DNA of 64,000 bases from Raillietiella orientalis (Eukaryota). The notes below the pieces were generated by a model. It was given only the letters and a program-made list of their open reading frames with translations, did not search any database and was not told the DNA's origin. The position numbers and the translations under genes were made by a program. The DNA is taken from contig JAYWIR010000026.1 of NCBI GenBank assembly GCA_036172245.1, forward strand, positions 2,232,001 to 2,296,000, in the 5' to 3' direction. Of the stretch, positions 10,259 to 64,000 are shown one piece after another. Every line of letters starts with the position of its first letter. The stretch's first letter is position 1.

Positions 10259-10292
<34 letters not shown>

Positions 10293-10610
10293 GTTTCCAA
10301 AATGACAGCGTTCCGGAGGATCTGCAGAAGCTAAAATGTAGTGATCACTTTTCGAGAGGGAGAAAGGCAAGGCGGAAGACGCGACACCTCGCCGAAGTCT
10401 TTGGCATGCACATTCGTTCGATCTGATCCCACGCGTTTCTCATGTGTGCCAGGACATCGTCCCTTGTCAAACGACGTGCACAGATCGGGCACGGACGTGC
10501 CCCGCGTACCACGTCGGGAGTCAAAAAGGTTCATAATTACCAGTGCCATGCTTCGCGGGGACGGCCCCTGCCGACGAGCGACCCTGCAGCTTTTCCGTTC
10601 GCCTGCTACT

Positions 10611-11000
10611 TACAAGAAGTGGCGAGCGCCGGCCGAGAGGCTCCAGAGAGGGACGGGAACACTCGCACCGGGCCGAGCCACCGGCGCCGTCGGTGGAGAC
10701 CCCGCGCGCCCTCGCGCTGCGGGCTCGACGGGCGCCGCCGCCGACCGGCGTCAGGCCGCTGGCGGAATGCATCGGGAAGCCGACGGGTTACTGCTCCTTC
10801 CAGGAAGAAGTGGCGAGCGCCGGCAGAGGCTCCAGGGAGAGCGGCTGGACGGGAACACTTGCACCGGGCCGAGCCACCGTCGGCAGAGACCCCGCGCACC
10901 CTGGCGCCCGCCAGCCGCGCTCCCTCGCACTGCGGCGCGGCGCTCCGAGGGCGCCGCCGACCAGCGTCAGGCCGCTGGCGGAATGAATCGGGAAGCTGAC
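10611..11000 (+). repeat. GC-rich tandem duplication, two imperfect units of ~190 nt
   Basis: AAGAAGTGGCGAGCGCCGGC...GCACCGGGCCGAGCCACCG...GCGTCAGGCCGCTGGCGGAATG-ATCGGGAAGC occurs starting at ~10613 and ~10805. Confidence 0.9.
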
Positions 11001-11939
11001 GAGTTCCTACAGGCGTGGCGCCTTGTCCCGGGAGCAATACATACCAAATGCCTGCTGGCGTACTTACATTACTTTAGCATGCGTTGCTTAATTGAAAATT
11101 TCCCCTTGGTTCGCGGTGCAGCGCGGTTTTGCCCAAGTTAATCAGCTGCCTAGTTGGCTTATAGTTGCCTAGTTTTTCCTTTTCTGGATAGTTCCCCATT
11201 CCCTGGCACCCGAATCCAATGCGTTGTCGTGTACTTTGGTGTTTCACAATCACGTGAAACACACGAAGATGCATGTATTGTACGCGTACGGCGGGAAATC
11301 AGTGTATGCAAACCGGCGTTCGTTCATTCCATATGCATTGTTCCACTCATTCCGTGCATTTCTCCGTCTGCACAGAAAGAACGCGGAAGTCGTGTGCGCG
11401 GATATCTTCTAACCTCGGTACTCGAACTGCCGCCCGCTTCTGGGATTCTTATTTTCCATTAAAAACCAATTTATCCATCCCTACGGAGTAGCTGCGTACT
11501 ACTTACTGTGTGCCCTGACGCACACACTCACACACACAGAGAGAGAGAGAGAGAGGAGGTGAGGGGGAATCTGAGGTTTAAGCTCCCATGTCCTCTTGAC
11601 CATTCAATTCCGTGGATGAGCATAAGACTGTGGACCCACTGAGTAGCAATTGCGTACAATTGGGTGCCTCCTTCCTCCATACTGTTGGTTGCCAGTTTCA
11701 GATTACCCATTTCCGAAATAACGCAGTTGACGTAAATGTATAATTTTTCACTGCAATTTGGGAGATAGTGATGAGAAGACCGCAAGGTAAACCGCAACAT
11801 GAGAAACTGATTCCAACAGTTGAGCTGCGTGCAGAGCTCTGAGAATATTCTCTGATTGTTCGAATTTCTCATAAGCAGACGCACCACCATCCCCTAATCT
11901 GTTTATGGGGAAAGAAGAAGAACTCTCGAACGCTAAGCA

Positions 11940-12300
11940 AGGGAGGAGCTCGTGAGCTCTATGGGGAGCATAATGGGGAACAGCGAGTGCGGTCCAAAGC
12001 ACAATTTTGGCATCGGTTACGTGATCGATCGAAATAAAGCTGCCATTCCTCAGGAGGAAAGAGACAGTAGCAAAGGAGAGGAAGCAGAATACTTATGTGA
12101 AGTGGAAAGAGAACGAGGGCTTCCGGCTGCTCTCGGTGGGTTTGACGAGATGTGCTCTGCAATGTGAGGCAAAAGAGAGCACAGCGTCTTCCGCCGGGGG
12201 TGACGGCTGGAGACGAGGCTCAACGTGGCATTCTTCCGAAGATCAGCTCCTGCTCAAACACGTCAAGAGATCAGCTGATCCGCTTTAATTTATTAGCAGT
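11940..12300 (+). mobile_element. Possible decayed RTE-like endonuclease remnant
   Basis: GNSECGPKHNFGIGYVI resembles the RTE APE segment SG...H..GVGF. There is little other support. Confidence 0.22.
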
Positions 12301-13049
12301 CCCAGATGAAGCTTGTCTAGGGATCGAAAAGATCCCTAAGCAACGAATGGGCCTGTCTTTGAACGCTCACCGACATGAGAGGTTGCTTTTGACCGAAAAT
12401 GCAAAGAAGCTTAAAGAACGAAAGCCCAAAACAACATCGCTCACTTGAGCGAGCTTTACAGGTGCACTCCTGTGGTTACTCCACAAGCGAAGAGGATGGG
12501 ACCCGCCGAAGGTTTTTCATGATTGATTTTCTCGTAAAGCAATTCGCTGCTGAGGCAACAACTTGCATCTTTACCAGCTTTTTTCTTTTTCCTTTCTGAT
12601 CAGCTGTTATACCGCAGCGTTATTAACAGTTGGATACCGGAGGCAGCATTTCATCAGAATTAAAGACGGCTCTCCGGTGCGCAGAGGGTCCAACAGAGGG
12701 CCTGCCCGGTTTCGGTGCTGACCGCGATCCATCCTTTAAGAGGAGGTCAGGCACGCGCGGTCATTGAATGGAAGACGCGCAAGCGCGGCTTAAGCTGCAG
12801 AGGCTGCCGAGCCCAGGAAGAATCGCATGCGGACACTTCGTCTGTGCGCGAATCCTCTCTTGACGAATCGAGGACAAGCGATACCTGCTGCCGGTGGCAA
12901 AGGAGGACGCGCGGAGTCATGGCCGCCTCAGGCCTTCCGAATGAGAACTCAAAGGGAGAGGATGACGCCTGGAGAGGCCGGAAAATGCCGGCGATGGGGA
13001 TGGAAGGGGGGGCGAGGGGAAGAAAGTTTCATGTATATATATATTAAAA

Positions 13050-16000
13050 AAAAAAGTCCTTCCGACTGGGCTTGACCGGCGCCTGCCGGCAGATTTAGGA
13101 AACCGGGCGCCTCCCAAACTGGAGCTCCCGCAGCCTGTCGGCTCGACCGATACCTGGCAGCAATAGTGAGTGGGTCCTCGGCGCATGCGCGCGAGGCTCC
13201 AATGGCACCAAGTCGACACCGCGAGAGCGTAGTTTACAGGAACGGCGTCCTTCCGGGATCGCCTTCGCGGGACAGGAGCAGGCGGGGAAGGCAGAGCAGA
13301 TGGAACCCCCCCCCCCCCCCGCAGAGAGCGCTGCAGACAGCAACGCACCCGTATTTTTCCGAGGTCCTCGAAGAAGCAGATCGGGCGTGCACGTTGGTTC
13401 CCGACAGACCGCGACAGAAGAAGGGAGGTCGCCATTGGTCCGCGCAGCCCTCCTTCGTCCTTCCTCCCCTGAGCCAAGGACGCACCCAGGGTGCTAGGGT
13501 GGGCTGGGGTGGGCGTGCGGACTGATTCCTGGGGCAGAGAACCCGTGGAGGTATGTCCGGTGGCGCCTCGGAATGGCCCTGTGGAACCATGAGACTTCGT
13601 CGAAGCTACGTGAGGGGGGAGGGGTAAAGCCCAGCCAGACAGCTCCCGCCACGAGGAAGCGTCGCGCTCTCCTCGGCAGCCGTTTCCCGGGAAACTCGCT
13701 CTCGTCGCTAGCAGAGCCGCGGCAGCACGGCGCGCACGCGCGCGGTCAGAGTCGCTAGTCGACTCCCGAGCCACCCATTGGCGGATTCGGGAGGCGTGCA
13801 GTCCCCGAGAGTCACGTGACCCACGGCTTCTCCGACGCCCTCCCGCCACGTGTTCCTCCGCAAAGGATACTGCTCCTCTGGCCGAGGGCGCATCCCCGGC
13901 TGGGATGGCGAGCGGCGGTCCCCACCACTCTCCGACCCCTATCACAAGCGGAAGGAGGGAGGGGACCCATCATGTCGCCAAGGGTCATCCATGCTTTTTC
14001 CGGAGGCGTGCGCCCACCCACTTTTCTTCGACCGCCCTCCCCATCGCCGTCGCTGCTCGTGATCGTCGTTTCCAGGGTTACCGGCTTCGCAGCTGCTGTT
14101 CGCTCTGCACCCACCCGAGGCCGCCAAAGTGCAGCGCCCTCATCCGTCACGAGGTCGAGAGCACAGGGGGAGGAGGGCGAGTAGGGGAGGGTGGAGGAGG
14201 AGCGTGGTTTCTCGCGACGGCGCTCTCCTCGAGGGGTCGTTCTGCCTTCTTCCGTCAGGGGCTCACGGCAGCTCGCTGCCTAGCGGACGGCTTCTTCGTC
14301 AGGGAGATCGAAGGGTTGCAGCTTCCGGACCGCCCAACCGCCCCTTCCTCCCCGTCCCGACTCCGCCGTCCGCACGCCCACGCCCGTTTTGCCAGATGGC
14401 TCCGCGGGACTCGTGGAGCCCCTAGCGAGCATTCCAGACGTCTTCACTTGCCAGGGGAGACCCCGCCAGCGCTGTCTCTCGGCAGGTAGAGCAAGGGGAA
14501 GGTGGAGGAGCTGGTGGAACATCTCCTGGACTTTCCCCCTCCTCCTCTTCTCCCTCTTTCCCTTCCCAGGTCCCATCCCCCATATGGAGGCTATGCCGAG
14601 GGTCCCAAGGGTAGGCGGGACCGCCGATCGAGGCGCACCATGTGGCGGTCCGGGATGCGTAGCGACGCGCCCTCCACCTGTCCTGCTGGGCGCAAGCGCC
14701 ACGCAGCAACGGGGCGTCGGCTCGCCTCTCTCCTCCCTTCCCATCCCCGCTCCCTCGGTCATCGGCTCCCATGCTCGCTGTTTCCAGGATGGAGGTGGTG
14801 ACGAACCCCCCTCCCCCTCGCTATTCTCCTCTCCGCTTTCTTCTGAGGCGTTAACTTCCAGACGAGCGGCGGAGGGCCTCTGGACGGAAGGCGCGAGGTC
14901 GTGGCGGCTGCAGACCGTGGTCGCCGCAGGGGCGGGACGGTGGCGGTGCGGCTGCTGTCGCCCTGCGCACTCCAGTCCAGAGCTCCCACGCAAACGATCC
15001 TTCCCCCTGCTCCTCCCCTTCCGCGCCTCTCTCGTGACCTCCGAAGCGTCGCGCCCCCCTCCCAGAGGGAGGGGGAAGGGCGTCTTCGGCCCGGCGACCC
15101 ACCGCGGCTCGTTCGCCAGACCGGCCACCGGAGGTCGTCCTAGTCAGCAGTTCCGCGCGCGATCCCCGACCCATCCCTGGGTGAGGAGGATCGCTCCTCT
15201 CCCATTCCTCTGCTTCTTTCCCGGGAGCGTCCTCCGTCGGTGCCTGCGCTTCACGAGCAGCGTCCGCTCCAGAGGCCCTAACCAGTCCGCGCCTCGGGAG
15301 ACGCACGCGCACGCGCGGATGTTCCATCTCGCAGGTGGGTCCTGCCGCGCCCGCGTGACCTTTCGCAACCGCGCTCTCAAGGGGCGCGCGGCAAGGGACG
15401 TTTCGGGCTGCAAAGGTTCCGGTCGCGAGCCCCGGGAACCGAAGGGAAACGCGCCGCTGCTCCCCGCGCCCCACTCGCCATCCAAGGAACTCTCACGGGA
15501 GCGGAAACGCCGTTTCCGCACGCATCACCAGGAAGCGCTCATCCAGCAGGTTCGCCGTGTCGGAGTGGGCCAAAGCCCGGCCGGGCGCCTCGATGCCATC
15601 CGATGGAGAGTATCGCCATCTGGCCCCGGTTGACCGGCCGGGATTAGAACACGATCCTCCTCAGGACATCGAGGAGCTCTTCGGTGTTCCCCTTCGGCTG
15701 TGAAGACACGGAGCCGTACCACGAGGCCGGTTGATGCTGCCCCCCCTCGGGGGTCGCCTTTCCAGCGTGTGAGGAATTGCACTGCTCCCTCCGGGAGCAC
15801 CCTTCAGAGAAATTGGGGACCCCTTCGGGATCCTCTTGAGAGAGGGGGGAATTAGGGAGCGGTTCCCCTGCGGGCTCCCTCTGTAGAAGAAACGAGGAAT
15901 GGACTCCCTCCGGAGGGAGTTTCCCTTCGGATTTTCCTACCAAGCGTGAGAGAGGGAAGGATCCCTTCCTCCGGAGTCCTTCCATAGGGTGGTTCTCTCC

Positions 16001-16150
16001 CGGGATATCCCTATAGCTTGAAGGGTCACTACGCGCACCCTCGGGTGGCGTCTGCAGTATTGAAGAGCTTCGTGGGCCTCACCCAAGGAGGCGGGCGGTC
16101 CCTGAGGGCTCACCTAAAAAACGGGAGTCGTCGCCGCCTCGCCGTGCCCG
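13050..16150 (-). mobile_element. Decayed L1/Tx1-like retrotransposon body with RT remnant
   Basis: The minus ORF 12917-13945 has degenerate RT-like blocks in the expected order: SLAQGRKDEGGLRGPMATSLLL (~PK..NWRPISLL), CFFEDLGKIRV (~LDFEKAFDRV) and LARMRRGPTHYCCQVSVEP (~VRQGCPLSP..EP). 15630-15720 is the reverse complement of 18095-18180. Confidence 0.45.
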
Positions 16151-16189
16151 GATCACGAGGCAGAAGACTCGCTTCTTCTCTTTGGGTGG

Positions 16190-17330
16190 TTTTCACCCGA
16201 TAGCGCCGGGACGTTTATTATAAAAATAGTAAGCATACAGGTGTAGGGCCATCGGCAGTAGAACATCCGAAAAAGTTCGCTGCCTGCTGAGCAACCGGCA
16301 CGTGGGCCGGCGAGATTCTCCTTGGCAAAGAAGGGGGGGGGGGCAAATAAAAGTAAAAACAAAATAAAAGTCAATAAAAAGAGAAAACTCTGGGGGGAAT
16401 GGGAAGCGATCACCGTGAGCTGGAGGGCGTCTTCTGCATCCTTTCCTGGATGCCGGCAAGTTACATCCGAGTATGCCCCAGATGGGGCCGTCTTGCTGCT
16501 GTCCGCAGAAAGCTCAAGGCGAAGGGCAAATGGCGTCCCTGTTGTGCCGTCCTCCCCTCGCGCAGCTCCAGGGCACCATAATCCCGCTCAGGCAGCAAGG
16601 AGCTGCTAGGGATGTGGAGGGTGAAAGGGCATCGCGCAGGAAGAGGCATCCTGGGATTGTCCGTCAATGTTCCAAGGGTCGTTGGGTAATGCAACCACAG
16701 AGGCCGGAGGGCAACACAGTCTACGAGCAGGTGCGGGAGGAATTCCCGTTCCCCGTACCTGCAGCAGTTGGGGTCCGCAGCCCCCCCAGGTTCAGTGGGA
16801 GAGGTGGACGCTGCACAGGAGGTTCCAGTGCAGCAGCAGAAGTGTCGACGCCTGCCACTTCAAGAGAAGGACCCAGTTGTTTCAGCACTGGGGCCACTCG
16901 AGATCTTGTGGGATCTCCAGCAGCTCGCCCCAGCTCAATAGTCCTTTCGGTGGGGCACTTAAGGTCGCAGCGTCGGTGAGCTGTTCCATGGTCCAACCAC
17001 CTAATTCCTTCGTCAGAAGACCTATTTAGCAACTGACCACCCACTTGGTCGTCTGGTTACTGCCCAGGTGCTCTTTGAGGGAGGGCAGTGCTGCGGCTAG
17101 GAAGGTTCTTTGTGCCCACGGGCACGCGGTGGCTGCACGATGACGTTCTGCAGCGAGCTGTTGTTGCAGAAGGAGTGCAGCAGTCGCTACCGCGTCTCTG
17201 GGATCGTTTCCTTGTGCGGACGGCACTGCCAGCAACCAGGAGCTACCGTTCGCGGGCCGGCAAAAGATCCAAGTGGGAATCTTCTTTGGTGGTGGAATTT
17301 TTCCTGAGGGCGCTTTGTTCGTTCCCTGAT
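16190..17330 (-). mobile_element. L1/Tx1-like element 3' part (copy A)
   Basis: Zinc-knuckle-like PNCCRYGEREFLPHLLVDCVALRPLW, followed by a T-rich 3' UTR and AATAAA plus hairpin. Homologous to copies B-D. Confidence 0.6.
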
Positions 17331-17989
17331 GGACCTCGCGACTGCGCGCGTTCCCCTAGGATCCACCGACCCGATAGCCGCGCCCCCCGCTTCCTCTGAC
17401 GGCGCAAGGAAGCGAGGGAACTGCCGGTGGAGCCCGGTCGTCCTCTCCGGAGGGTCGCACGCTGCGGGCTACTCGGCCCTCGCCGCACCGACTCTGCTTC
17501 GATTGCAGTGGGTTCGCTGCCCTCCCCCTTCGTCCCCGGAGCGTTCCGTCGAACGCGGGATGGAAGTGGGCGAGCGGGCTGGCAGGAGAGAAGCCCTCGA
17601 GCACACCAGCAGGAACGTCCGCCCCCGCGTTGGGGAAAGGGGTTGCAAACCAGCCGTGGCCTTCTTTCATTCCCGGCCAGGACTTCCTCTCTCAGCGCCC
17701 GATCCGTTCGCTCCCGGGTCGAACGCACTCGCAGCAGCATCCGACCTACTAGCTGACCCAACGAGAACCCCTCCTCCGCCTTTGCCATAGAGGCGGAGGA
17801 TGAGGATTTTGCGCGAGCTCGGCGTCTCCGTGGTGGCGCCGAGCAGGGAGGCAGAGATGTTTCACTGAAGGGGAACAGCGAAGGAAGGGAGAGGCGGGTG
17901 CCGCCCTGTGGGACCGTGAATTTCACTTCTAAGTGTGAGGCTGACGTCACGTCAGCGACGGTGGATCGCGTTTTTAGGAAACGATCTGC

Positions 17990-19100
17990 TACCGTCGGAT
18001 TCTGAGTGGGGGGGAGCTAGGACGAAGGAAAGCAGGGTGCGATCGCAGAGCCAGGGGTGATGCTCCCCCACTTCTACCCGCTGGGAAGGATGGGTCCATC
18101 TGCACAGCTGGAGGGAAACTCCGAAGGGCTCCTCGATGTCCTAGAAAGATCCTGGAAGGTCAACTTTTAATCGCGGCCAGTCGACGGGGTAGGTCGGTGG
18201 TTTCTGGCTTCCACCGGTCCTGCAGGTGGCCACACTGGCAGGAAAAGCGGATGGATCTCGTGCCACCCCGCTAACGGTGGTGCCTGGTTTCAGGAAACCG
18301 TTCGCACGTAGGCTCATGGACTTTTACACTGGGGAGTGCTGCTGGGTATTCCGGAGGAAGTCCTGCAGTGACCCCCGGAGCTCATGAATACCCTCACCTA
18401 TCCCCCTCCTTAAAGTGGCAGGAGTCGGCATTGATACTGCTGCACTGGGACGCCCGCCGGCATCATTGGATACGGGAGGGAAGGGTGGACCCGAACTGTG
18501 CAAGGTGCGAGGAGCGGGAATCCCTCCCGAGTCTCCTAGTGGACTGTGTTGCCCTCCGACCCCTTTGGGGACGCTTCGCCTGCCGCAACCGTTGGAACCC
18601 CCTGCGGCAACGCCAGTGACGTTTGGAAGAGCCCCTTCCTGCGCGATGCCATCACGCCGGGCCCATCCCTCCCTAGCAGCACTGTGCTGCCCACGCAGCG
18701 GTATCGTGGCTGCATGCAGCAACTCCAGAGGAGGGAGGGAAGAACGACAGGACGCCATCCATTTTGCTGTTGTCTTCATGAGGACAGCGTCAAGGTGGCC
18801 CCATCTATGAAACACAAAACAGGAACTTGCCGGCATCCCTACAAGGATGCAGTGGACTCCAGCCAGCACACAGTGATCCCTTCCCGGACCCCCCTCCCAT
18901 TTTTTGACTGTATTTTATGTTTTTTTTTTTTTCTTTTTGTTTGTCTCCCCTTCTCCTGTGCTGACGAGGCGAACCCTGCTGGCCTGCATGCCAGATCCCG
19001 GGAGGTTCCTTCTCGAAGCTATAAGTAACGTGACAGGATCAACGTCCTGCCGCATTCGTTTATTTTTTATAAATAAACGCTCCCGCGTGACCGGGTGTCA
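17990..19100 (+). mobile_element. L1/Tx1-like element 3' part (copy B), inverted relative to copy A
   Basis: HHWIREGRVDPNCARCEERESLPSLLVDCVALRPLW (zf-RVT-like), a T-rich 3' UTR, and AATAAA at 19072 followed by a hairpin. Confidence 0.6.
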
Positions 19101-21270
19101 ACCAGTGCCACACCCGAAGCCTACGGCTAACCGGTGTTATCTTGCGTAGAGGAATCGATACCCACGACACACACCCCATCTCTCGGCATTCCCAGGAGAG
19201 GGGTCGAGTCCGTGACGCCTGGTGATACGCGCGGAAGTCTCAGGCACATGGCCGCCCCTGCAGGCGTCAGGACACCGAGAGGATCGACCGCCTTGGGGGT
19301 CCCGCTCGGACCGAGCGATGGACAGCAGTGCGCTCTCGAGCAGCCGGCTAGGGGCAGAGGACAAACGGCTGCTAAAACGGACCCGGTCAGTTTCGGAGAG
19401 CGGAGCAGGGCAGGGACGCTCATCAACTGCAGTCATCTTATCCATCTTCCACACTCGAAGACGATCATAGCTTGTTGAGTTCTTCCTGCCCAGGTCACCG
19501 GTCTCATCTTTTGCCCGCGATCCGGGAGGCGGTGGAGGTACGCAAATCGCTCGGGTCTGCAGTGCACGGAAGACTCCGGGGTTCTCGGGAGGATTCTTCT
19601 TGGTTCAGAGTTTCGCGTTCCTCCGTGGTGGACAAAAACCCTGCTGCACGCAGAAGTACAAGATCACGGGATTTCCCACGACGAAGGATTTTCCTAAGTT
19701 TCTCGCCTTCTAGGAAGAACCCCGGCTCGGCAGGTGGGGTTCACTGGGACCGCAAGGGGTAGCGGACGTGAGCCTCAGAGTGTCCGTTTCTCTCCGCCCA
19801 ATCCTGAACCGCCACCATTTGGCGGTTCAGGATTGGTTTATCCACCCGTCTTCTGGCCATCACCGGAATTACTTCGCCGATTCTGTGTCCTCTCGCTTAG
19901 CCACCTATCGCTTAGGATCCTTGCTTTCCCTGGGCGCCTGTCTTGCAGGAGCTCCAGGAGTGCTGCTCAGGGGTCTACCCCGTCTCCTGTGCACTCTGCT
20001 CGAAGATCCTTCCTCGTTTGAGACTTCAGTCACCGGAAATACCCCTCTGCACCACACAGCTTCTTTCGGAATTGCTGGCTTCTCCAGCCCGTTTGCTTTT
20101 TCCGCCATTGGTTGGTCGTCCCGGGCAGGCGCAGAATTCGATCTGTCCCTCTGATCCTTCCAGAATAGGAGAAACTCCAGTTGCCGAAGGAAGATATTGA
20201 GACGGAAATTCCTTCCGGTCGGCCTGTGGGCTTGGGAACTTCCAGTCCGAAGGGGATCATCTTCCCGCGTCTTCCGGAATAGCGTGCGGAGTCGGAAGTG
20301 ACTTTCCTTCTTTCCTTCTACCCCTGGTCTGCGGAGCGAACGACACGTTTACGAGAAGCTTCTTGTACCGGCCTCAGCTGCTCGGCTCCTGCTTTCCGAA
20401 GAGTCGTGACCGGGATGTGTAGCGACTGGGAGAGAGTCTGTGCGAAGACTATGAAGGCACCCGGGAGGCGCGGATGTGCGGTGGTTGTGTGGTGCCTCCG
20501 AGACTCCGCGTCTTGGTTCTTGGAAGCTCTTGGACCAGGATGGCCATCGAAAGCACCAGCGGCAGGCCGCTTGCCAACCCCGTCATCTGCTACGAGTTGA
20601 CACTAATGAGGCTTCTCGTGATACTGCTTTAAGTTTATTAATCTACTAGAAATGGCAATGACCGTGGCCGTTGCAAGGATTCTTTTTGCGATGTGTGCTT
20701 TCCCTTGAGATTGCTGAGGTGACGATGTACATTTGTGTTCACGTCTGCCTCCATGCAGTGTAAAAGAAATTGAATTTTCCATGTTTAAATTTCATTCAGA
20801 CTTTACATATCTATCATGAATTTTTGAGATGTACTGATATTCTGAGCCCATTGAATTAAAGGTCTGTGCAAACTTATCATGCATTTAAAAGAATCTAGAG
20901 ATACTAAATATACAAGCAAACACGTGTGCTTATGAAATGAATGGGTGAGTAACTTAAGCGAATCCTTGTTCCGTGGTCTTCCAGTAAATGCATTAAATGC
21001 CTTTTTTTCCCCTCTTTTTCTTTCCAAGGTGCATTTCTTGCTCTTACAAAATGATTAAGATGAAATATCAAGGAAGCGTGGTTAACTCAAGTATCAATAT
21101 TGTATGGAGCTCCAAGTTATCATAGCATCAGACAAAAAGTGCTTCACCCAAACATACTGCGGATATCCCTCGAGGCAAATTGACAAACAAACACTCAGAA
21201 CATTCCACGGAAGAAAACGATGATTGCTAAATTAAAGTTGGAAACACGCCTACAAGAACATGCCTCTTCC

Positions 21271-21689: not shown

Positions 21690-24600
21690 GGTCCCCCTGG
21701 TGTGGGGGGTCCGCTCTCCGTTGTATGACCAGAGGGGGAATTCCCCACTCCTTTATTCCTGGAAGGACCCGAAGGTCGACTCCCATTGTTCCGGCCTTCA
21801 TCGGGGTCCTCCGGTTTGAACACCACCGGTGCCACGCCCGAATGCCTCGGCCAACCAGCGCCATCTTGCAGGAGGAACTCGGAACCCAACGACGCAGTGG
21901 CGTCAGTTTCTGCCAGAATATTCGAACCCGCAACGCATGGTGCCACGCGCGGAAGTCTTAACCACAAAGCCTCCGACGCGGGCTTGCACATGATAAGCTT
22001 GCACAGAGTGGAAGATGTATCAATAAAATACAAATGTAGGAGATGTAGTGCGGATATACACTTAGCAAGGCCTTCGCACCGTGTTTGCGATGGGGAACCC
22101 TCCTCACCTGCCCCCGTGGTGACGGTACGAGTGTCAAGGAGGCTCGTCTGTACCAGACCGGAGTGCGGCATGGCCTTCTCCACGAGAAAAGGCCTGCTAA
22201 ACTATCAGGTCTGGCATGAACGAACTGGGAGGCGGCAACTTGCCAGCGGAGGAAGCATGGTGCAGATGGAAGCTCCATACATTAATATACCTGGAGAAGA
22301 AAGCGAACACCCAGAAAGCAAAGAAGCAAGAAGATGAGACGTCGGTGATGCTCCGAGATGCTCCCGCTAGAAGAAGAAGAGGAAGGAGGGCTGTCTGGCA
22401 ACTTGAAAGCAATTATAGACCCTCTGATCGAAGATGATCTGATCGAAGATGATCTGAGAGAAGACACGGTAAAGGAGCAATTACATCCCGCTCCCATGGA
22501 ATACAAAGTGTGGTGTGATTCCCCCCTCCGTCTAGACCGTCATCACCCAGCCACAGTTGCTCTGGAGTACGAACGAGAACAACCAGAAGAGACGAACAGA
22601 ATGGAAGCCATACAGAAGATATGGAAACCAAGAGGCAGGACAGGAAAGCGGATATGGAGAGCGAACTACTCCTAAAAATTCAGAGAGGAGAGAATTCATC
22701 TCCAGAGGATCCTAGATGAAGAAAGACCTCGTTGGGAGGACTTTCTTCTGACATATCAGGATGTGAAAGTTAGCATTCAAGAGATACTCAGAGTTAAAAC
22801 AAAAAGGTGGAGAGGAAAGAAGCCGAGGATTGACCCAAACAACAGATCGTCAATCTAAAAACTTTATAACATCAACAGAAGAAGAGCAGTTCAAGCGATT
22901 TTAGTCCAGCAGAACCCAACTTGTAATTTGGAGGTTAGCGAGGTAGAAAGGCATTTTCAGAATGAGTTGGAGACAAAACAGGAAACAGACAAAAAGCTTC
23001 CCAAGAAGATAACTCTGGGAAGAGGCCAAGTGGCATCCTCCGTAGACCTATCTCCATTTGCGCAAGAGGGGGTAGAGGTGATACTGCGGAATGCGGAAAA
23101 CTCATCCCTCGGAGAAGATGAAATCATCTACGCAGGATGGAAGAGCATTGATCCAGAGACGGAAATGCTTACGATAATCTTTAATACAATCTTTAAAAGG
23201 TTTCGCCGAATCTCAGAAGAGTGGAGGTGGACCAGAACGGTACTCATAGCGAAGAACCCCTCAGCAGCAGAAGACATCTCCAGCTGGGGACCAATATCCA
23301 TTGGCAACAGTGCATACAGACTGTATGCCAAATGCTTGGCCGCCCGAATAAGAAGATTTCAGAAAACGAGATCATCGGCATCTAAAGGTAGGGCTTCCTG
23401 CCCTTTGATGGAGTGTTCGAATAGAAGTTCATCTAACAAACAAGACTGGATGCTTCTTGCATCTGGTCGGAGGACTTCTGGGCAGTCTTAATAGACTTTG
23501 CCAATGCCTTCGGCACGGTCTCCCACGAAACAATCATGGGAACACTGAAAGAAGCAAGAGCAGGAGAAGAATTAATGGATATTATTCAAGAAGCGTGTAC
23601 AGGAAGTTCCACTTTCATTCAGCTGGAAAATACAGAAATGAGGACCTTCTCCGTGCGGCGCGGAGTGAAGCAAAGATGCCCCCGAAGCTCACACCTATTT
23701 CTCATCTCAATGGAACCCATCCTCCGCTCAATGAATGACCACTATGGGGAGGACGGGATACTGGCTTACACCGATGACATCGTTATATTGGGCAAGGAGG
23801 AAGCAAAAGTGAAAGAAATGGTAGCGCATTTCCAGAAATTATTGGAGCAAACCAGCCTATCCATCAAACCGGCTAAATGAGCCTGAATATTCTACACTGG
23901 AAAGACTCCTAAAGGTCCAAGGGACGTGGAAATTCAGGTGAAAGAAGGAAAAATCCCTTGTATTGCCTTGTCACAGGCATACCAATACTTGGGAAAACCC
24001 TTTGGTGTTAAGGTATTCAATTCACAACCATCCAAGGAGGACATCTGGCAGAAGGCGAGTGCCATACTTGAGAGTGAACTCTCAGGATCGCAGAATATGG
24101 ACGCAATAAAACCTTCTTCTACCCCAGTCTAGTTCATTACGAGAGGCTAGGAATTCACCAAAAAGAAGAATGGCAGCAAGTAGACGAAGAAATCAGGAAG
24201 CAAATAAAGTAGGCCTTACACCTACCATCCTGGACAGCCAATGAGTACTTGTACGGATAAAGAAGCAAAGGCTGCCTAGGACTGATGAAGCTAGCTGGAG
24301 AATCCGAACTCTTTACCATGCACAGCTGCCTCAAATTTTTCACCTCACCAGACAACGCGGTAAGGAAGTTAGCTCACGATACTTTGGAGGAAGTGGTCCA
24401 AAAACGAACCCATGAAGTGCCGACACGAAAATCTCGGGGATTTCATGACGGGTACTCTACACAGAAAAACCACACGATCGGGAAATGATATAGAGAGCCT
24501 CTGCATGGAAGGAAGGAATTCTCTAGAAGGGTCAAAGCCCTCTGGGAATTTCAACAAGGAAAACCCAGTATGACAATTGATGGCGTAATCTTTACCAGCA

Positions 24601-26170: not shown

Positions 26171-27455
26171 ATGTCCTATTCATCTGTTGACCTTAGTTCA
26201 TACAGGGATCAACATTTCAAGGTATTTTTGCATCGAAGATTTTGATTTATTCATTATTTTCGTGTTAAGTTGTATGTAAAGATTCTGGTTGTGTTTTTAC
26301 TTGTACATTAGGATTCATTATGAACTTGAGTTATTTAATAACGCGTCATTCAACAGCCGTATCTGACGTTTGTTAATTTGTGCATTTTTATCAAAATGTT
26401 TTGAATCAAAACAAAGCGTGGATCACGAGTGGATTCTACAATGTTTGAATTAAAATAAATTTCCATATAGTATTATTGTTTTAAATATGTATGGTAGTGT
26501 ACCTTGCTGTAAATAAGAAATGTTGATTTTGCTTTATTTTTCATATCTAGTAAATAAACAGTTGTATGAAGAATTTCAATTAGGCGACCAAATTTTACAG
26601 AGTTAATTGCATCTTTTCATCAAAAAGATCTTTTACTTTTTAAATATACATGATACCATTTATAATTATAAAATGTATAAATATATTTATAAAGGATTCC
26701 ATTCCATCTCTTACATTTATCAAGAAATTATCATTATGTTTCATTATATTAAGTTTGCTTGGTTTTCTTTAACTCATCAAAGTTTATGTTTTATTGTTTA
26801 AAGGGAAATAAATCAGATCAAGAAAGATTGTTGAGAACATCCACCACCTTATATCTTGGAAATTTGTCATTTTACACAACTGAAGAACAGATACATGAAT
26901 TGTTTTCAAAAGCTGGTGACATTAAACGAATAATCATGGGACTAGATAAATTTAAGAAGACACCATGTGGATTTTGTTTTCTAGAATATCCTTTTTTGAA
27001 AAAGATTACACTTTTACGATATTTAATTTGTAGATTCTTTGCTAATATATTGGAACATAAAGCAATCTGAACACATTTCACATTGTTGAATTGTTTTATG
27101 TTGGAAGTGTAAAAGCCTTTGATATGTAGTAATACCCTTAACAGAGTTACATATTATCAACGAAGTGATGCAGAAAATGCCATGAGGTATATCAATGGGA
27201 CAAGACTAGATGATCGTATTATTAGAACAGATTGGGATGCTGGATTCATAGAAGGAAGACAGTTTGGTAGAGGGAAAACTGGAGGACAGGTGATATTACA
27301 AACAGATTGTGTTAAAAGTAATTTAAATTATTTATTAGGTACGGGATGAGTACCGGACTGATTATGATGGAGGCAGAGGTGGATATGGAAAGATAATGCA
27401 TCAAAAACTTTTGCAAAGTGGTGCAACTTTCATTGCCAATCCAAATAAGTTGTGA
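26171..27455 (+). CDS. NCBP2: Nuclear cap-binding protein subunit 2 (CBP20); exons 26171-26221, 26804-26985, 27151-27289, 27339-27455 (162 aa)
   Basis: [85 protein letters not shown] and GGQVRDEYR.DYD.GRGGYGK. The 489 nt are in frame when intron 2 is spliced as AT-AC. Confidence 0.97.
26986..27150 (+). other. U12-type (minor spliceosome) AT-AC intron, NCBP2 intron 2 (165 nt)
   Basis: 5' splice site ATATCCTTTT, branch point ACCCTTAAC (27134-27142), terminal AC at 27149-27150. Splicing restores CFLE|YY. Confidence 0.95.
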
Positions 27456-33784: not shown

Positions 33785-36700
33785 TTATTGTGGGGCTGAT
33801 GCACTAATAATATTTTCTGCATGCCTCTGGTATGTATTATCCCATACTTCCTCAATGGCTTTCACCCATTCTGCAGCCTGGTACTCAGGGTCTTCTAAAT
33901 AATACGTACGATTGGGCTGAAGCAAACAAGTTATTGGTTACATATGAGTGATTACTTGCAGTGTGTACATAGAAGACTTTAAAATTTTTCATTTCCACAC
34001 GCAACATGTTACTCCATGGAATTTCACCCTTTAAAACTTTGTTGCAGGGATCAACATAGTAAAGATGAGGTCCTGTTGTTAGCAGAAACATTCGTCTTCT
34101 AGCAAAAAGTCCCTACACACGTTGACAATGGAGGTAATCACTTAATACATACTTTTCGTTTGTCAATAAGTCCCTGTTTAAGGATGAGATGTCCATCAAC
34201 AAATTTATGCCAAGGACTGTTTTGGCTCTGGATTTCTAACCTATGCATATGATCACTTGGTGTTAGTGCATGTAACTGCAGTTTCCTTTTGCCTCTTTCC
34301 TCAAATGACTTTCCAGAATCTAATGATTTTGTCAAACGTAAAGGCGAATCGCGATCTGAATGATGCAATTCAGCAATAAGTAAATGTGTCATATGCTTAT
34401 CATCAAGACCAGGTTGAATGTTAGGTGGAACCTGGAAGAAATGACGCTAGCAATATAATTTCTGTTCACTGTTATACCTGGTCTTCAATTGGTTCTTGCA
34501 TAGTTTCAAAAAGCTCAGAAAATATAGGAGGAGGTTTTTGTTTATACAAATTTTCCAATTCCAAATGCTCGAAAAATGGATCACAACGTATAGACGTGTA
34601 GGGAATAGCATCAGATGCTCCTAATCTTGCTTTCGGGTCTGTAACCTAAAAGAAACACTACTTTACTGCTCTTTTTACAATTTTATTTCACCTACCAGTA
34701 GTTTCTGTATAAGACTTTTCGCTCTAGGATCAAATTGTTCCGTAAATTCATAATTTAAATTCAAGATTTTTTGAAAAATCCCATACTCATGCCTAAGGAC
34801 TTATTAAACTGAACTTTATGTAATATAGGTACACACATTTCATGGAAGGGTGGTAAGCCTGACACCATTTGATAAGCAATACAACCAAGTGCCCAAAGAT
34901 CACATGAGGGTGTGCAGACTTCACCTCGAAGTACTTCAGGAGAAACATATTGTGCAGTACCAACAAAACTCTTTCGCCTTGAAGAGGTTGTTCCTATTTG
35001 ATCACCATCACTATTGCTCTATGATTGAAATGATTCACTCTAACCTGTGCTGGTTGATGCTTCATTGATAAATTTTGCAGAACCAAAATCCGTTATTAAA
35101 ATGTGCATTTGGTGAGATAATAAGATATTTTCCGGTTTCAAATCTCTGCAATGGAACGTATTTAATTTCAAAATAGAAAAAACATTTACCTGTGAATGAT
35201 TTTTAAACTGTGCAAATGCTCTAAGGCATGTACTAATTCACCTGCATAAAACTGAACACATTCTAAAGGAAAATTCCCTGCCTGATTGATGTGAGTCAAG
35301 AGTTCTCCTCTGGAAGCATATTCCAACACAAAATATGAGCATGTTAAGAAAGCAATGTAGACTTTTAATTTTTTTTAACATCCCAAAGGATACATAAGCG
35401 ATTGACATCTTGAAATGTAAAATATAACTTGACAAAAAAAGGGCATGATTCCCTCTGATGTTGATTTAAAATATTTAAAACTTCTTTTTCACATTTCACA
35501 TATTCTGTCTTTTTCTCACGCAGGATATGTACTTTCTCACAAACTTTAACTGCAAAGCATTCATGATAATCAAATTTGTACAAAAAAATTCATTAAATCT
35601 TACTTGCAAATTCCTTTTGAGAATGTATATCCTTGCAAAGGTACACCTAAAGTAATTATCATTATAACCAAGACACATTTGGGCATATCGTTTAATACTT
35701 AAAGGTAATAAAAACATAAATGAAAAGTTGTATGTATATCAGGACAACAGTTGACATGCTTTACAAACTTTCTGTTTAGAAATTGATTTCTTAACATAAG
35801 GAACTCGTTACAAGAACAACTTAAAAAAAACCTCAGAAAACATTTACAGAAAAACTGAAGATTTTACTGTGCTAGGCACTATTGTTTCGGATGAAATGAG
35901 TTCGTACAAAAGCGATAAACACACTTGTGGGCAAATCATTACTTTTCTTCCTGTTTCATACAGATGGAAATTCTGATGTTTTCATCTCCACACATGGAAT
36001 AACTATACAACATCATTCTCAAGCCTTTGCAGGATGCAGACTCTTTATATGATAATTAACTGTTATATGTAAAAAAATCTTAATTCACGAGAAATTGCTG
36101 TTCAAAATGCCAATGCAAACAGCATTCGAAAAATTCTCCACTTAAGAGCGAAACCTGTCAAAAGGTTCCACCTTTTGTTCTTGTCATAATGCATAATGAT
36201 AATAATCAAACATCTGCAAAAGAGTTTTCCACGTTACCATTTCTATGACGTATCATATGAATGGAAACTGTTTTACACAAGAGCTAAAATGTCTGAGATG
36301 GACTTGTGGTTTCTAATCCGAGATTCTCCACAGTTCGATATGCAATACCGGGCTGCTCGCCTGTTTGGGCATTCTTTTAAAATTTCCTGTAAAAGTTTTA
36401 AATGCTTCTACGCTAACAGAATTTGAAGTGCTAGCAAATCACCAATTTTACTTTCCTAACATTTTTTTCCAAACACCTTGGACGTTCACCGTTTCTGTAA
36501 TTTTTGGGCATTTACATGATGCCGTTCGATATCGTCCTATGTCGAAAATTCCCCATTTTCTAATTACCTAAACGCTCTTTTCTATGCAAAAATTCGCAAA
36601 GTCATTAGTTTCTTTTCCTTCTTTTCCATATGCATTATTGACTTCGATCAGACAGGACACTATTTCACAAATTTCTTTCTATTGAAGAAGGACTCTCTAC

Positions 36701-37226
36701 ATTTGTGCCCAATGCAGCACAAGAAACATCCATGATCCAAAGACATTATGTAAAACCCATTACTAATGTGATATTCTTTTTTTTAAACGCCACAATTATT
36801 TGTGCAATTTCGCAAATTATCCACTGACTTAAAATTAAAAATAAATTGTGCATTACTGTTGAAAAGCTTCCTTCACCAATGACTCGACCCCAAATGAAGT
36901 CTTTGTCTGTTCGTTTCACATGGTTGGATTTAGTTTCCGTTTGTTTCACAGGTAGTTCATTTTTCTTAGGACTACTAGGGAATTGATATTCATTAACTAT
37001 GGAAAGAAAAATTGGCACGTTACTTACAGCAATTCTGTGGCACAAGTATTTTCTTTCTCATTGCTTTGCAATGTATTTCGTGCATTTGTTTTCTGTTGAT
37101 AAAATTCTGATTCCCTCTGAATTTGTACATTATTACTGAGATCTTGAAATTTTTTAACTAAATCATCTTCTAATTTACTATTTGTTTCTTTCATCATCTG
37201 TATGGATTTCTTATTTGATGCCTCAT
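33785..37226 (-). CDS. PDPK1: 3-phosphoinositide-dependent protein kinase 1; exons 37226-37028, 36974-36857, 35646-35604, 35549-35394, 35334-35190, 35145-35045, 34993-34837, 34792-34696, 34645-34478, 34431-34153, 34112-33960, 33916-33785; start codon uncertain (in-frame Met at 37197 or further upstream exons)
   Basis: [43 protein letters not shown] and [13 protein letters not shown]-terminal PH domain [49 protein letters not shown]. Exon phases are all consistent. Confidence 0.93.
33917..33959 (-). other. GC-AG intron (43 nt), last intron of PDPK1
   Basis: Donor GCAAGT, acceptor TTCAG. This junction gives the conserved VHT|PNRTYYL; the GT 4 nt downstream is out of frame. Confidence 0.85.
35335..35393 (-). 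other. U12-type intron with non-canonical GT-AT termini in PDPK1 (59 nt)
   Basis: 5' splice site GTATCCTTT, branch point TTTCTTAAC, then ATGCTCAT|. The junction restores [15 protein letters not shown]. Confidence 0.8.
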
Positions 37227-55070: not shown

Positions 55071-55104
55071 AGCAACCTTCTCCCAAAAGCAATCCCAAGG
55101 AATA

Positions 55105-55521
55105 CAGTGGGCTTCTGTATAAAGCGAGGGGTACGTTCCGCGTCATAGAAGTCCTATGGGTTAGTGGTAGATTAGATAGCACGAACAAAACAGATTTAAA
55201 AAGATATGGGGCGTATCTTCAACGATACAGCAGTAAAACATCCATCATCTCACCTTAGGAAGAAAAAAAATTGAACTTTGAACTTGAAATAATGATAATA
55301 ATAAAGCAAGCCTTCCAGTTTCCTCGGCATTGGATCAATTGCAACAACTTCATGGTTCCGGCTTTGGAAAAATGTGCCTCCTTGCGCTCTTTTGACCCAC
55401 GAAAATTCGGGCGAAATGAAATCCGACCTACTGAAATCACGTGCTCTCGTTCTTTTCCAAAACCACGAAATTTACCCGTAGCTCTGCAAGGGGGTGATTT
55501 ACCGCGTTATGCGAGGGTCTG
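55105..55521 (+). mobile_element. ~420-nt non-coding repeat, pogo/Tigger-like MITE candidate (copy 1)
   Basis: Near-identical reverse complement of 63476-63899. Begins TA|CAGTGGGC...GGGGTACGTTCC and ends CCGCGTTATGCGAGGGTCTG, which form degenerate terminal inverted repeats. Confidence 0.7.
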
Positions 55522-55999
55522 TTTTCGTGCTTGCACACGGGAAAGAACTCTTTCGCAAGCATAGCTATTTGACTAACAGCGTGCAAGAGTTGGTTAGCTG
55601 AGAGTGCTGGGGTCTACGGAAGAACTGAGACGCGTCTGCTCTGTGCCTTTCACACGGTTGGCATGACGACGACGACGGCCTCCTATTTGCTCTCTGTGCT
55701 CAGACTGTTCAGTCATCGGTCCTTCTCCGATTCTCACACTTGTGATCCTTCAGCAGAGAATGAGAAGGTATGATTCCCTCTGGTGCTCTTCCCGATCCAC
55801 AACGAGGATCATCATGGAGTTACGATTTCCGCGTACTTTCATTCATATCCGGTAAACAGCACAGCACAGACCCGGTTCAGGAGCATCTATCCCCGCAGCA
55901 CACACTCTCGAATCTCTAACCGTTCGTCGCGGCCGGTGACCGTTTTGAGTCACCGGACGACCCGACCAGCACACGTTCCGGCTGTGCAGCACGTTGGCA

Positions 56000-57590: not shown

Positions 57591-58645
57591 GCAAACTCCA
57601 ACAGCATCGAACCGACTACGCAGGGGTTCAACAACGCCCTTAAGACGGCACTCCAGAAGAGCTTGAAGAGCTCTCCTAATAATTTCTCGACCTCTTCCTT
57701 TCTCTGAAGAAATGCATCATATTGAAAGTTTGCTCTTCCTAACAGCGAACGGATGCAGAGGTGCAGAAGCTCAAACACGCTATGGTGGAGATGTACGTTT
57801 TGCTCGGCTACGTAAAGCACTCAGAACGAAGTTTTATGCTATTCATAGGCAGGCAGAGGACGCTGTGACCCCGAGTGTCCCGCCGTAAGGACTGCTACGC
57901 TGGGGAGAGCTGCTCGGAATACCTTCGGAGGAGATGAAGTGGTCCCCAGCTGGTTGGGAGAGTGGCAACTTCCCCCTGAAGTAGCAGGAGGTGGCGTTGC
58001 TCATGTCGCATTGCGGAATCCCGTGTATCCCATCCGCCTCCATCATTGGACACGGGAGAGTGTGGATGCCTGTTGCGAAAAGTGCGGCGACAAAGAGACT
58101 TTGTTGCACCTCCTGCCGGACTGGTCGACCATCCTAGATATTCCCGAAGGCTGCCCCAGGGACATTTTTAAGCGCCTCTTCGTTCGCTCCGGCCTTCCGC
58201 CAGCAGCGTCCCTAGAAGTTCTCTGCTGCATTCGAGGAAATCGTGGCAGCCTGGAACGCGATAGGAAGAGGCCAGAGTGGCAGGGACGCCATCCGCTGCC
58301 ACGGATCTTTTTGAGGGCCTAATCGAGGTGGCTCCACCTGGGCAATGTGAGAACGCAACTTGTTGGCATCCTGGACGGAATACAGAGGACGTCTCCAGGC
58401 AAACAGCTTAGTCGCTTCCCTTCCCCAAGACACATCTCCCTCCCCATCTTTTCCTTTTTTTTTTGTTTCTTTTTGTTTGTGGTCTTCTCTCCCCCTTCGC
58501 CACGGAAACGAACCTCGCCGGTCTACAGACGGCGACCGACAAGCTGGAGTGAAGTGGTGAACCAAGTGGTTCACCACACAATAATAATTATTGTGTACTT
58601 TTATTATCTTAATAATAAATGCCTCGACAAATTCGGGTAATAAAC
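57590..58645 (+). mobile_element. L1/Tx1-like element 3' part (copy D)
   Basis: RLHHWTRESVDACCEKCGDKETLLHLLPDW, a T-rich UTR, and AATAAA at 58614 followed by a hairpin. Confidence 0.6.
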
Positions 58646-58689
58646 ATCCGACACTCAGGATGACCACGGAGGCATCCTGAGTGGTATGA

Positions 58690-58900
58690 GGGCGAAGCAC
58701 TGGTCAGGCGCCAGCCAGGACGAGATCTGCAAGGCCTGTGGAGAACCGAACTCCCCGTCCTCACCTGCCCTACGCTGCGCCGCGACTGGGTCAAGCTGAA
58801 AGAGGTGACCAGCCTGCAGACGCTGAAGAAGATGGAGACCCTGGAGGGGATCTTCGAAGGGAGCAGCCCTGACACAACCCAGGGGTCCTCACTACCGTCG
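58690..58900 (+). mobile_element. Additional LINE C-terminal zinc-knuckle remnant
   Basis: DEICKACGEP, then after a frameshift VLTCPTLRRDWVKLKE. Confidence 0.35.
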
Positions 58901-60989
58901 CCCTCTTCATCACGAGCATCGTGACATGAAGGGCAAAAATGTGGACCAAGATAGGCAATGCGCCGACAGTAGGCATCCTGAAAGGATTGCTGAAATAGGA
59001 AATCGGGATCAGGAGCTGTGGACGCATCTCCGCTTGGACTTACCGTTACATCCTGCACAGGATTGAGGAACATGGTCAAGCGAGTGGAATCCCCGCAAGA
59101 ACCTAGCGACTCCTTCCCAGAAGAATACCCCAAAACGCAAGCGACACGCAGTGGCATTCGAACTCCGAGAAAGCGAAGTCGAGTGACAAAGTGTTGTACC
59201 GTGAATCAGTGTGACATATTGATATAAGAGTTGCCAAATAAATTCGCCCCACAGCGAGTCGGACTGGGGGGAAACGGCTCTTTTCTGTGAGCACTTTCAG
59301 GATGGTCGAGGCGCTGCTGCAGCAGCTGAGCTTCTGTCCGTATTCGGAGAAGCTCGAACGCCCAGCGGCCAGGTCTTTCGACGTTTGGTCTGCTTGGTTT
59401 ACTGGAGGAAACGTGGCGATGGAGAGGCTGAACCGATAAACATTTCAGTCTCGCAGCGGGAATCCCTGAAACGATGCTTGCGATTTTCGTTCGGGAAATT
59501 CGGCACTGACAGGATGAGCCGACAGGATAAACAGGATTTTCGTTTCGTTCGATAAACGGGGAGGGTTTCGTTTTTGCCTCGGGGTGCGAGGAGATAAGTA
59601 GCGACTTGGAGATGTGGGAGGCGCTGCTTGGCACAAACGTGACCCACGTCCTCACCATCCTTTTCCTGTTGAATTGGCCCGACGTTAGTTCTAACAGTGT
59701 GATAAGGATGAGGTCTCTCAAATTTGGACACAAGAAGAAGTGTTTTCTGCTGAGTCTAATAATGTGAATTGGAGAGCACCGTTCGATATTGCCCAATGCA
59801 TTGGCCAGAAGCCGTGGCTAAACACACGCCAGTTGAACTGCCCACACAAGTAGATGGATAGATCTCCAATTAAAGGATAAATGCTGTTATGTAAGTAATT
59901 TTCCATTATGAAACAGAATTTGGTGATATTCATGCAATCGATAGCTAAGAGAAGGGGACTTTTAGGAATTGGCCATGACGCGTGTTACAAGAGGATTCAG
60001 TTTGCTAGCTGACAACGCGGGAGCGCCACGAGCGCCTGTACATCGCTGTACATCATGTACATCACTGCCACGAGCGTCTGTGCGTCGCTGTTTGGGTTAA
60101 TCAGGGTGATTAAATGGGTGACCTGAGTGGCTTGAATCGAGGTTAAGTGAAAATTGGTAAGCAGACGGAAGGCTCAAGAGCTATAAGGATGATCTACGGT
60201 AAGTCGGTGCCTGGACAACAGAGGAACCGTGATCATCACGTCCTTTCCAGATGCCAGATTCGAGAATTCCACACGGAAACAGCACTGAATTGTGGACGTG
60301 TTCAAGGAGTAGCGAGGTCCTGGAGCCATCCGGGATGCATTCTGGTGCTTCAGGAGTTGCATCTGTAGGTCTGCACAGGCAGAAGGTGAGGAGGGCAGAG
60401 CTGGTTGTTTGCGTAAGGATGGTTGCAAGTGTGACTATGATGTATGACGTGTGAAGCAGTTCCATTGATTAGCGAAGAGAGGGAAGAAGGGAAAAGTAAG
60501 TCAAAAACAGCTTTTCGCATCCAGATAAAATTGAATGGAGGGTGCGTCTCAGGTTCGACTGATTAATCAGCACGACCGCATTGGTTTCAAGTGGCACGTT
60601 GCAGATGACCTTCACCACGGAGTACTCTGCCGACAAGTCATGTTTCCAGTTATTGACACATCTGAAGAAATGGGAAAATCAAGTTTTTTTTTTTTTTAAG
60701 GTAAACACATGGCAGGCAGGAGAAGAGCGGAATTGGAGAGAAGGGGCTACGTCGGGGGGGTTTGAAGTGTCGAGATGGGGTTGATGTTCAAATCGTTGCG
60801 GAATGTAAATGTAATTGACGGGGGATTGTATATGTAACGATACTTTTTGTTAGTGAGAATAAAGTCGTGGGCAAATTGCTGTAAGCACTTTAAGGAACTG
60901 GCTAGAAATTATTCGAACTATTTAAAGGAATGAAAATTTCGCGCAGAAAGTAATGTCTGCTAGGCGGAAGTCAATGGCTCATACAGGTG

Positions 60990-63470: not shown

Positions 63471-63475
63471 AAAGA

Positions 63476-63899
63476 AGACCCTCGCATAACGCGGTAAATC
63501 ACCCCCTTGCAGAGCTACGGGTAAATTTCGTGGTTTTGGAAAAGAACGAGAGCACGTGATTTCAGTAGGTCGGATTTCATTTCGCCCGAATTTTCGTGGG
63601 TCAAAAGAGCGCAAGGAGGCACATTTTTCCAAAGCCGGAACCATGAAGTTGTTGCAATTGATCCAATGCCGGGGAAACTGGAAGGCTTGCTTTATTATTA
63701 TTATTATTTCAAGTTCAATAACGGATAAACGCTTTTTTTTTCTTCCTAAGGTGAGATGATGGATGTTTTACTGCTGTATCGTTGAAGATACGCCCCATAT
63801 CTTTTTAAATCTGTTTTGTTCGTGCTATCTAATCTACTACTAACCCATAGGACTTCTATAACGCGGAACGTACCCCTCGCTTTATACAAAAGCCTACTA
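63476..63899 (-). mobile_element. ~420-nt MITE-like repeat (copy 2)
   Basis: Reverse complement of 55105-55521 with a few substitutions and one small indel region. Confidence 0.7.
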
Positions 63900-64000
63900 T
63901 CGTACTGGGGTTATGCACAGCTATGGCAGTAAGAGTTGTCTTTAGACTATTTTGACAAAATTAGTGTGTTTTTCTAAGACAACTTGTTTCTGGATGAATT

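Follow-up and report, generated by a model that had tools for sequence, protein, structure and literature searches.

A locus on the minus strand of the 64,000-nucleotide stretch of DNA analysed here (the window) raises the question of how an intron that begins with GT and ends with AT can be removed from the gene of a conserved protein kinase. The intron, at 35335..35393, interrupts the kinase region of a PDPK1 (PDK1) gene, and a preliminary description had presented it as a minor-class intron of only 59 nt with non-canonical boundaries. Such an intron could be what it seems to be, but the picture could also result from a wrong base, from a different splice junction, or from a gene copy that no longer works. 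It has been pointed out that the U12 class is not defined by the terminal dinucleotides (Turunen et al., 2013), and GT-AT introns have been placed among the G-type minor introns (de Wolf et al., 2021). Our analyses of the gene model, the splice signals, the possible junctions, and the orthologous introns suggest that this is probably the ancestral minor intron of PDPK1, which would have shrunk to 59 nt and exchanged its last base from G to T, and which would still be spliced by the minor spliceosome as a GT-AT intron.

The PDPK1 gene model

When the GT-AT junction is used, the PDPK1 frame is intact: the coding region at 33785..37197 on the minus strand consists of 12 exons with 1719 nt, corresponding to 572 codons without any internal stop. 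There are 11 introns, one of 1210 nt and ten of 40–59 nt, and the short introns other than intron 4 have lengths of 40–54 nt. The termini are GT-AG in nine of the introns and GC-AG in the last one (33917-33959, minus strand, 43 nt, GCAAGT...TTCAG), and intron 4 is the one with GT-AT. Its 59-nt length thus fits the other short introns of the gene, and within this gene it is the last base alone that is unusual. Exon 4 (35394..35549, minus strand) ends with ...FTFQDVNRL and the first base, a T, of a Tyr codon, intron 4 (35335..35393) is in phase 1, and exon 5 (35190..35334, minus strand) begins with AT TTT GTG..., which completes the Tyr codon.

In blastp, the spliced model matched all 51 retrieved proteins, and identities to insect PDK1 proteins were 53–59% over about 490–537 residues. 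The alignment with P0001 showed 59.0% identity over 493 residues (model residues 76–562), and that with P0002 showed 55.9% identity over 537 residues (model residues 32–558). The 572-residue model is colinear with known PDK1 proteins in their order of an AGC-type kinase domain followed by a C-terminal PH domain, the conserved residues of both domains align with the homologues throughout, and an insertion of six residues before PFFVKL is common to the window protein and the insect proteins. The domains PF00069 and PF14593 were precomputed on the database matches, and this annotation is that of the matches and not that of the window protein. In a protein search with exon 4, the best match was 73% identical and no protein of the same species was found; for the linker/PH exon (34153-34431), no relative was detected at E ≤ 0.001 among 28 candidates. 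Judged by these alignments, the gene is a PDPK1 orthologue.

The state of the gene also bears on the idea that the window contains a decaying or redundant PDPK1 copy, in which a G-to-T exchange has killed the splicing of intron 4 while a second copy elsewhere does the work. In favor of this idea, one would expect a PDK1 gene that is not correctly spliceable to disappear or to be replaced. However, the frame stays open through all 12 exons and 572 codons, the other ten introns have good splice sites, and the conserved kinase and PH-domain residues align continuously. This is not what a decaying gene would be expected to show, and we find this explanation hardly credible.

Minor-class signals of intron 4

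On the minus strand, the sequence across the intron is ...GAT GTC AAT CGC TTA T / GTATCCTTTGGGATGTTAAAAAAAATTAAAAGTCTACATTGCTTTCTTAACATGCTCAT / AT TTT GTG TTG GAA TAT GCT..., in which the slashes mark the boundaries, and this agrees with what had been described. The intron (35393..35335) can be abbreviated as GTATCCTTTGGG...TTGCTTTCTTAACATGCTCAT, with exon 4 ending at 35394 and exon 5 starting at 35334. Its 5′ splice site GTATCCTTT (35385..35393, minus strand) contains the full U12 consensus /RTATCCTT at positions +1 to +8. The candidate branch-site motif TTCTTAAC (35343..35350, minus strand) deviates by one base from the U12 branch consensus TCCTTAAC and was counted as a branch site; its two A's are at positions −11 and −10, the second of them being base 35344. 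The 3′ end is CAT (35335..35337, minus strand), with a T at 35335 where the orthologues carry a G, and the resulting GT-AT termini belong to neither of the main U12 combinations, AT-AC and GT-AG. The flanking T/AT repeat allows the junction to be shifted by 1–2 nt, and its three possible registers (T/GT..AT/AT, TA/TG..CA/T, and TT/AT..TC/AT) all lead to one and the same mRNA; it is only in the GT..AT register that the U12 5′ splice site motif is found at +1.

Taken individually, the motifs are not enriched in the window, as RTATCCTT had 7 matches with 4.06 expected, and TYCTTAAC had 6 matches with 5.22 expected. The combination of TATCCTT with a TYCTTRAY located 20–50 nt downstream was found once, compared to an expectation of 0.05, and at least one such match occurred in 4 of 100 shuffles. 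This sole pair of the window coincides exactly with the exon ends that are demanded by the protein alignment.

The window also contains an AT-AC U12 intron in NCBP2 (CBP20; 26986..27150, plus strand, 165 nt, ATATCCTTT...CCCTTAAC), to which the preliminary description had compared the spacing of the PDPK1 intron. This comparison was correct, as the branch A is at −10 in both U12 introns examined. Since the NCBP2 intron is a textbook AT-AC U12 intron with this spacing, the organism very probably possesses a working minor spliceosome. An Rfam scan of the window gave no match, and no minor-spliceosome snRNA was found within the window.

Choice of the 3′ junction

The best PDB matches for both exons that flank intron 4 are human PDK1 chains. 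Residues 1–50 of exon 4 align to chain residues 38–81 of 1z5m_A, and exon 5 aligns to residues 84–130. After the last Leu of exon 4, exactly one residue is left before exon 5, and this is the Tyr encoded by T/AT; joining 35394 to 35334 results in RL-Y-FVLEYA, which is colinear with human PDK1. The same was seen when the window protein was aligned by MAFFT with the 46 retrieved homologues that have 240 or more residues (five shorter ones were left out): 45 of the 47 rows, including the spliced model itself, have Tyr in the junction column and no insertion. The two exceptional rows are P0004 and P0050, database PDK1 predictions with insertions exactly at the intron position, which end with an Asp before F-V. 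These insertions look like mis-annotated introns, and their final Asp (D = GAT) can be explained by the last G of an intron that is read through together with the AT of the following exon.

For intron 4, every possible 3′ end from 35374 to 35301 was enumerated. Retention of the intron leads to a stop after 9 codons, and the use of the first CAG downstream, which would result in an 84-nt intron, gives RL followed directly by a TAG stop, both as had been stated previously. Apart from the 59-nt intron, ends in AG, AC, or AT that keep the frame without a stop are the AAG of a 32-nt intron, the CAT of a 53-nt intron, and the AAT ends of a 26-nt and a 74-nt intron. The 53-nt CAT end is only 2–3 nt past the branch A's, the 26-nt AAT end is upstream of the branch site, and the 74-nt AAT end is about 25 nt beyond the branch site and deletes F-V-L-E. 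A second AT follows directly downstream of the proposed end (35333..35334, minus strand), with the branch A at −12; the resulting 61-nt intron would cause a loss of the frame and a stop after 33 codons. As judged from the translations, the GT...AT junction is the only one that restores the conserved L-Y-F, a restoration that the preliminary description had noted.

The implication that there is no other in-frame junction did not hold, as the AAG at 35362..35364 (minus strand), which is the only in-frame AG end among those enumerated, would complete a canonical 32-nt GT-AG intron (35393..35362). If the major spliceosome removed this intron, a PDK1 with nine additional residues (FYIAFLTCS) in place of the Tyr context would be produced, without any stop. 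Weak donors are used elsewhere in PDPK1 (GTATAA, GTGTGT, and GTTAGA), and GTATCC is therefore possible as a U2-type donor. However, all ten other PDPK1 introns have at least 40 nt, and the acceptor has an A at −3 that follows a run of A, whereas C or T is found at this position in all of the other ten introns. Furthermore, an insertion is absent in 45 of the 47 aligned rows, with the two exceptions looking like annotation errors, and the perfect U12 5′ splice site together with a well-spaced branch site would have to be mere coincidence. The use of this junction, or of another in-frame non-canonical end, is in our opinion very improbable.

The orthologous intron in other animals

In human and mouse, PDPK1 has been listed among the minor-intron genes (Olthof et al., 2019, BMC Genomics 20:686). 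According to supplementary file 1 of that study, the minor 5′ splice site is TGTGTATCCTTT in both species, with TGT as its exonic part, and the branch sites are given as ACTTCCTTAACT in human and TCTTCCTTAACC in mouse (Olthof et al., 2019). The nine intronic bases of this 5′ splice site are identical to GTATCCTTT in the window, and the mammalian branch sites resemble TCCTTAAC, whereas the lengths are very different, with 3644 nt in human and 5080 nt in mouse (Olthof et al., 2019) as compared to 59 nt in the window. From the TGT exon end, which agrees with a Leu codon followed by the first base, T, of the Tyr codon, and from the orthologous loci described below, we infer that the mammalian intron is positioned at exactly the codon that is interrupted in the window.

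Two short ORF-style proteins from the exon 4 search, P0009 and P0029, have tails with ...RL-CIL, which correspond to T/GTATCCTT read through in translation. When metagenome contigs were scanned on the basis of aligned exon-4 peptides, 80 PDK1 loci were obtained. Directly after the same Leu codon and T, a GTATCC or GTATCT donor was present in 12 of them (GTATCCTT in nine cases, and GTATCCTC, GTATCCCC, and GTATCTTT in one each), another GT donor (GTAAGT-like and others) was present in 6, and 62 loci, most of which look fungal, continue without an intron straight into Y-F or Y-V-L. The downstream exon could be located for eight of the 12 loci with U12-like donors (L006, L009-L014, and L023). These complete introns have the codon, the phase, the GTATCC donor, and a TCCTTAAC-like branch motif in common with the intron of the window. 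They are 223–840 nt long, their branch A is at −12 to −17, and all eight end in AG, so that the intron of the window differs from its orthologues in length and in its last base. The comparison with orthologous introns, which had been proposed as a check, thus supported the U12 donor and the branch motif, but it did not support the AT end.

In the group of loci with the arthropod-type insertion (L001-L008), two have a U12-like donor (L004 and L006), three have a U2-type intron at this codon (L002, L007, and L008, with GTAAGT and lengths of 70–90 nt), and three have no intron (L001, L003, and L005). As far as these loci can tell, the PDPK1 intron is labile within this group, with one minor intron having been both converted and lost. 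From donor, branch motif, phase, and codon position, it is well supported that the intron of the window represents the ancient U12 intron of PDPK1, at a position that is common to mammals and many other animals.

With its T at 35335, the intron end is only one base off the orthologues, and the same picture would also arise from a miscall or from a rare allele. According to this explanation, an error of sequencing or assembly would have occurred at base 35335, or the base would belong to a rare, possibly heterozygous and defective allele, and the true end would be CAG, which would make the intron an ordinary GT-AG U12 intron except for its short length. The AG ends of all eight complete orthologues and the fact that only a single base differs agree with this. 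It also agrees that an independent copy of the intron locus was found neither by the exon 4 protein search nor by exact-pattern scans of genome_contigs and viral_contigs, in which an N was placed at base 35335 and which gave no match. On the other hand, base 35335 is not part of any homopolymer (context GCTCATATTT), which is an argument from the sequence context rather than from reads, and there is no sign of errors in the other ten introns and in all 12 exons. In addition, GT-AT introns constitute about 0.5% of the human and mouse U12 introns, as derived from the 7 GT-AT cases among 66 non-canonical introns, which in turn are about 5% of all U12-type introns (Sheth et al., 2006, Table 2), and an erroneous substitution at any particular position in a finished assembly is probably less common than this. 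An error or a rare allele at this position is therefore unlikely in our view, although its probability is appreciable.

Other features of the window

Human and mouse NCBP2 are listed as minor-intron genes as well, and their minor 5′ splice site is of the GT type, with GGA/GTATCCTTC. In the window, the intron is of the AT-AC type, apparently in the same Glu codon; if the codon is indeed the same, this would be a subtype switch of the minor intron between lineages.

Blocks with a GC content of 52–67% are found at 1-6000, 10000-20000, and 58000-60000, whereas the rest of the window has 27–47% GC, with 27–40% in the genes. The long ORFs of the GC-rich blocks overlap on both strands and have translations rich in Arg, Pro, Gly, and Ala; no Pfam match was obtained for them, and they look non-coding. 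An ORF at 7946-8863 (minus strand, 305 aa) encodes an EXT1-like protein with an Exostosin GT47 domain (Pfam E-value 1.3e-19), whose identity is 40–56% to proteins of arthropods, echinoderms, and fish and, over its full length, at most about 50% to any database protein. An inverted repeat at 55094-55525 and 63471-63910 is made up of a 177-nt and an adjoining 248-nt piece, with arms that are 95–98% complementary and about 8 kb apart, and it could represent an inverted duplication or the ends of a mobile element with terminal repeats. A 62-nt direct repeat at 19204-19265 and 21922-21983 has 73% identity and a tRNA-like appearance, and its two units may derive from a SINE of tRNA origin.

Discussion

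The explanation that we prefer builds on the U12-type motifs and their spacing, the colinearity of the junction with known PDK1 proteins, the positional orthology, and the otherwise intact gene. Use of the intron 4 site by the minor spliceosome in vivo, and the efficiency of this use, we infer from these features. In a compact and AT-rich genome, the ancestral U12 intron of PDPK1 would have been reduced to 59 nt, and an exchange of its final base from G to T would have converted a GT-AG intron into a GT-AT minor intron ("G-type, GT-AN"). U11 and then U6atac would pair with GTATCCTTT, U12 would pair with TTCTTAAC, and the 3′ site would be picked mainly by its distance of about 10 nt from the branch A, as in the case of the AT-AC intron of NCBP2. 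The CAT end would be accepted, and exons 4 and 5 would be joined to ...CGC TTA T/AT TTT GTG.... Splicing could thus persist because the choice of U12 3′ sites depends largely on the distance from the branch point, and because AT would be tolerated after a GT start.

The points against this explanation are the AG ends of the eight complete orthologues, from which the T at 35335 is a single-base departure, and the rather short distance between the branch A and the proposed end. Moreover, the second AT is located at a branch distance of −12 and shifts the frame, and the in-frame site is therefore not obviously the one that would be favored by distance alone. One could imagine that both adjacent AT ends are used, the in-frame end at a branch distance of −10 and the out-of-frame end at −12, which is nearer to the usual optimum, so that a large share of the transcripts would be frame-shifted and degraded, and the dosage of PDK1 would be set by the 3′ site choice of the minor spliceosome, perhaps together with a wider loosening of U12 3′ ends in this organism. 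This would be a throttle on insulin/PI3K signaling that is based on splice fidelity, but we consider it a speculation with rather little chance of being correct. The preliminary description had taken a related step when it suggested that, in this lineage, the 3′ dinucleotide is recognized in a relaxed manner or that there is a regulatory bottleneck. As stated, this step is unsupported: GT-AT introns are documented in human, mouse, and Physarum, and a single such intron, out of the two U12 introns examined here, is therefore uninformative with respect to the lineage. Neither a lineage-wide relaxation nor a regulatory bottleneck is needed to explain the intron.

If the T at 35335 is real, a conserved and presumably essential gene would have a 59-nt GT-AT minor intron as its only productive splice at this position, and the locus would be a natural test substrate for the distance-based choice of U12 3′ sites. 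The intron is also a trap for genome annotation, since pipelines that are limited to GT-AG and AT-AC introns break PDPK1 at this point, and the database predictions P0004 and P0050 appear to be broken at the same intron.

Rare U12 introns with ends other than AG or AC have been reported, as the preliminary description had pointed out. In human and mouse, 4 and 3 GT-AT introns of the U12 type have been tabulated, for example in DEADC1 and SLC24A6, and GT-AT is conserved between the two species in two genes (Sheth et al., 2006, NAR 34:3955, Tables 2 and 3). Productive GT-AT splicing is reported from experiments (Dietrich et al., 2005, as cited in Sheth et al., 2006), and GT-AT has been counted among the conserved non-canonical termini of animals (Larue and Roy preprint). 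In Physarum polycephalum, GT-AT accounts for 17% of the non-canonical introns (Larue, Elias and Roy, bioRxiv 10.1101/2020.10.12.336362). That organism has a changed branch motif, TTTGA, and more than 20,000 U12 introns, whereas the intron of the window has the classical TTCTTAAC at an ancient position in a gene of the metazoan type. This branch motif and the arthropod-like protein speak against Physarum as the source of the window, which looks like DNA of an AT-rich metazoan with very short introns and a PDK1 closest to that of insects. With respect to length, minor introns can be shorter still, with a median of 39 bp in Blastocystis (Larue and Roy), and with respect to spacing, the −10 position of the branch A falls short of the optimum of 11–13 nt that is given for the distance between the U12 branch point and the 3′ site (Turunen et al., 2013). 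The GT-AT introns of Sheth et al. (2006) are located in other genes and have RefSeq transcripts behind them, whereas the intron of the window was read from genomic sequence alone. That PDPK1 is a minor-intron gene and that GT-AT is a rare U12 subtype was already known, and the case described here changes neither. What the intron of the window has in common with the GT-AT introns of human and mouse is the combination of a U12 5′ splice site, a U12 branch site, and an AT end that is a single base away from GT-AG.
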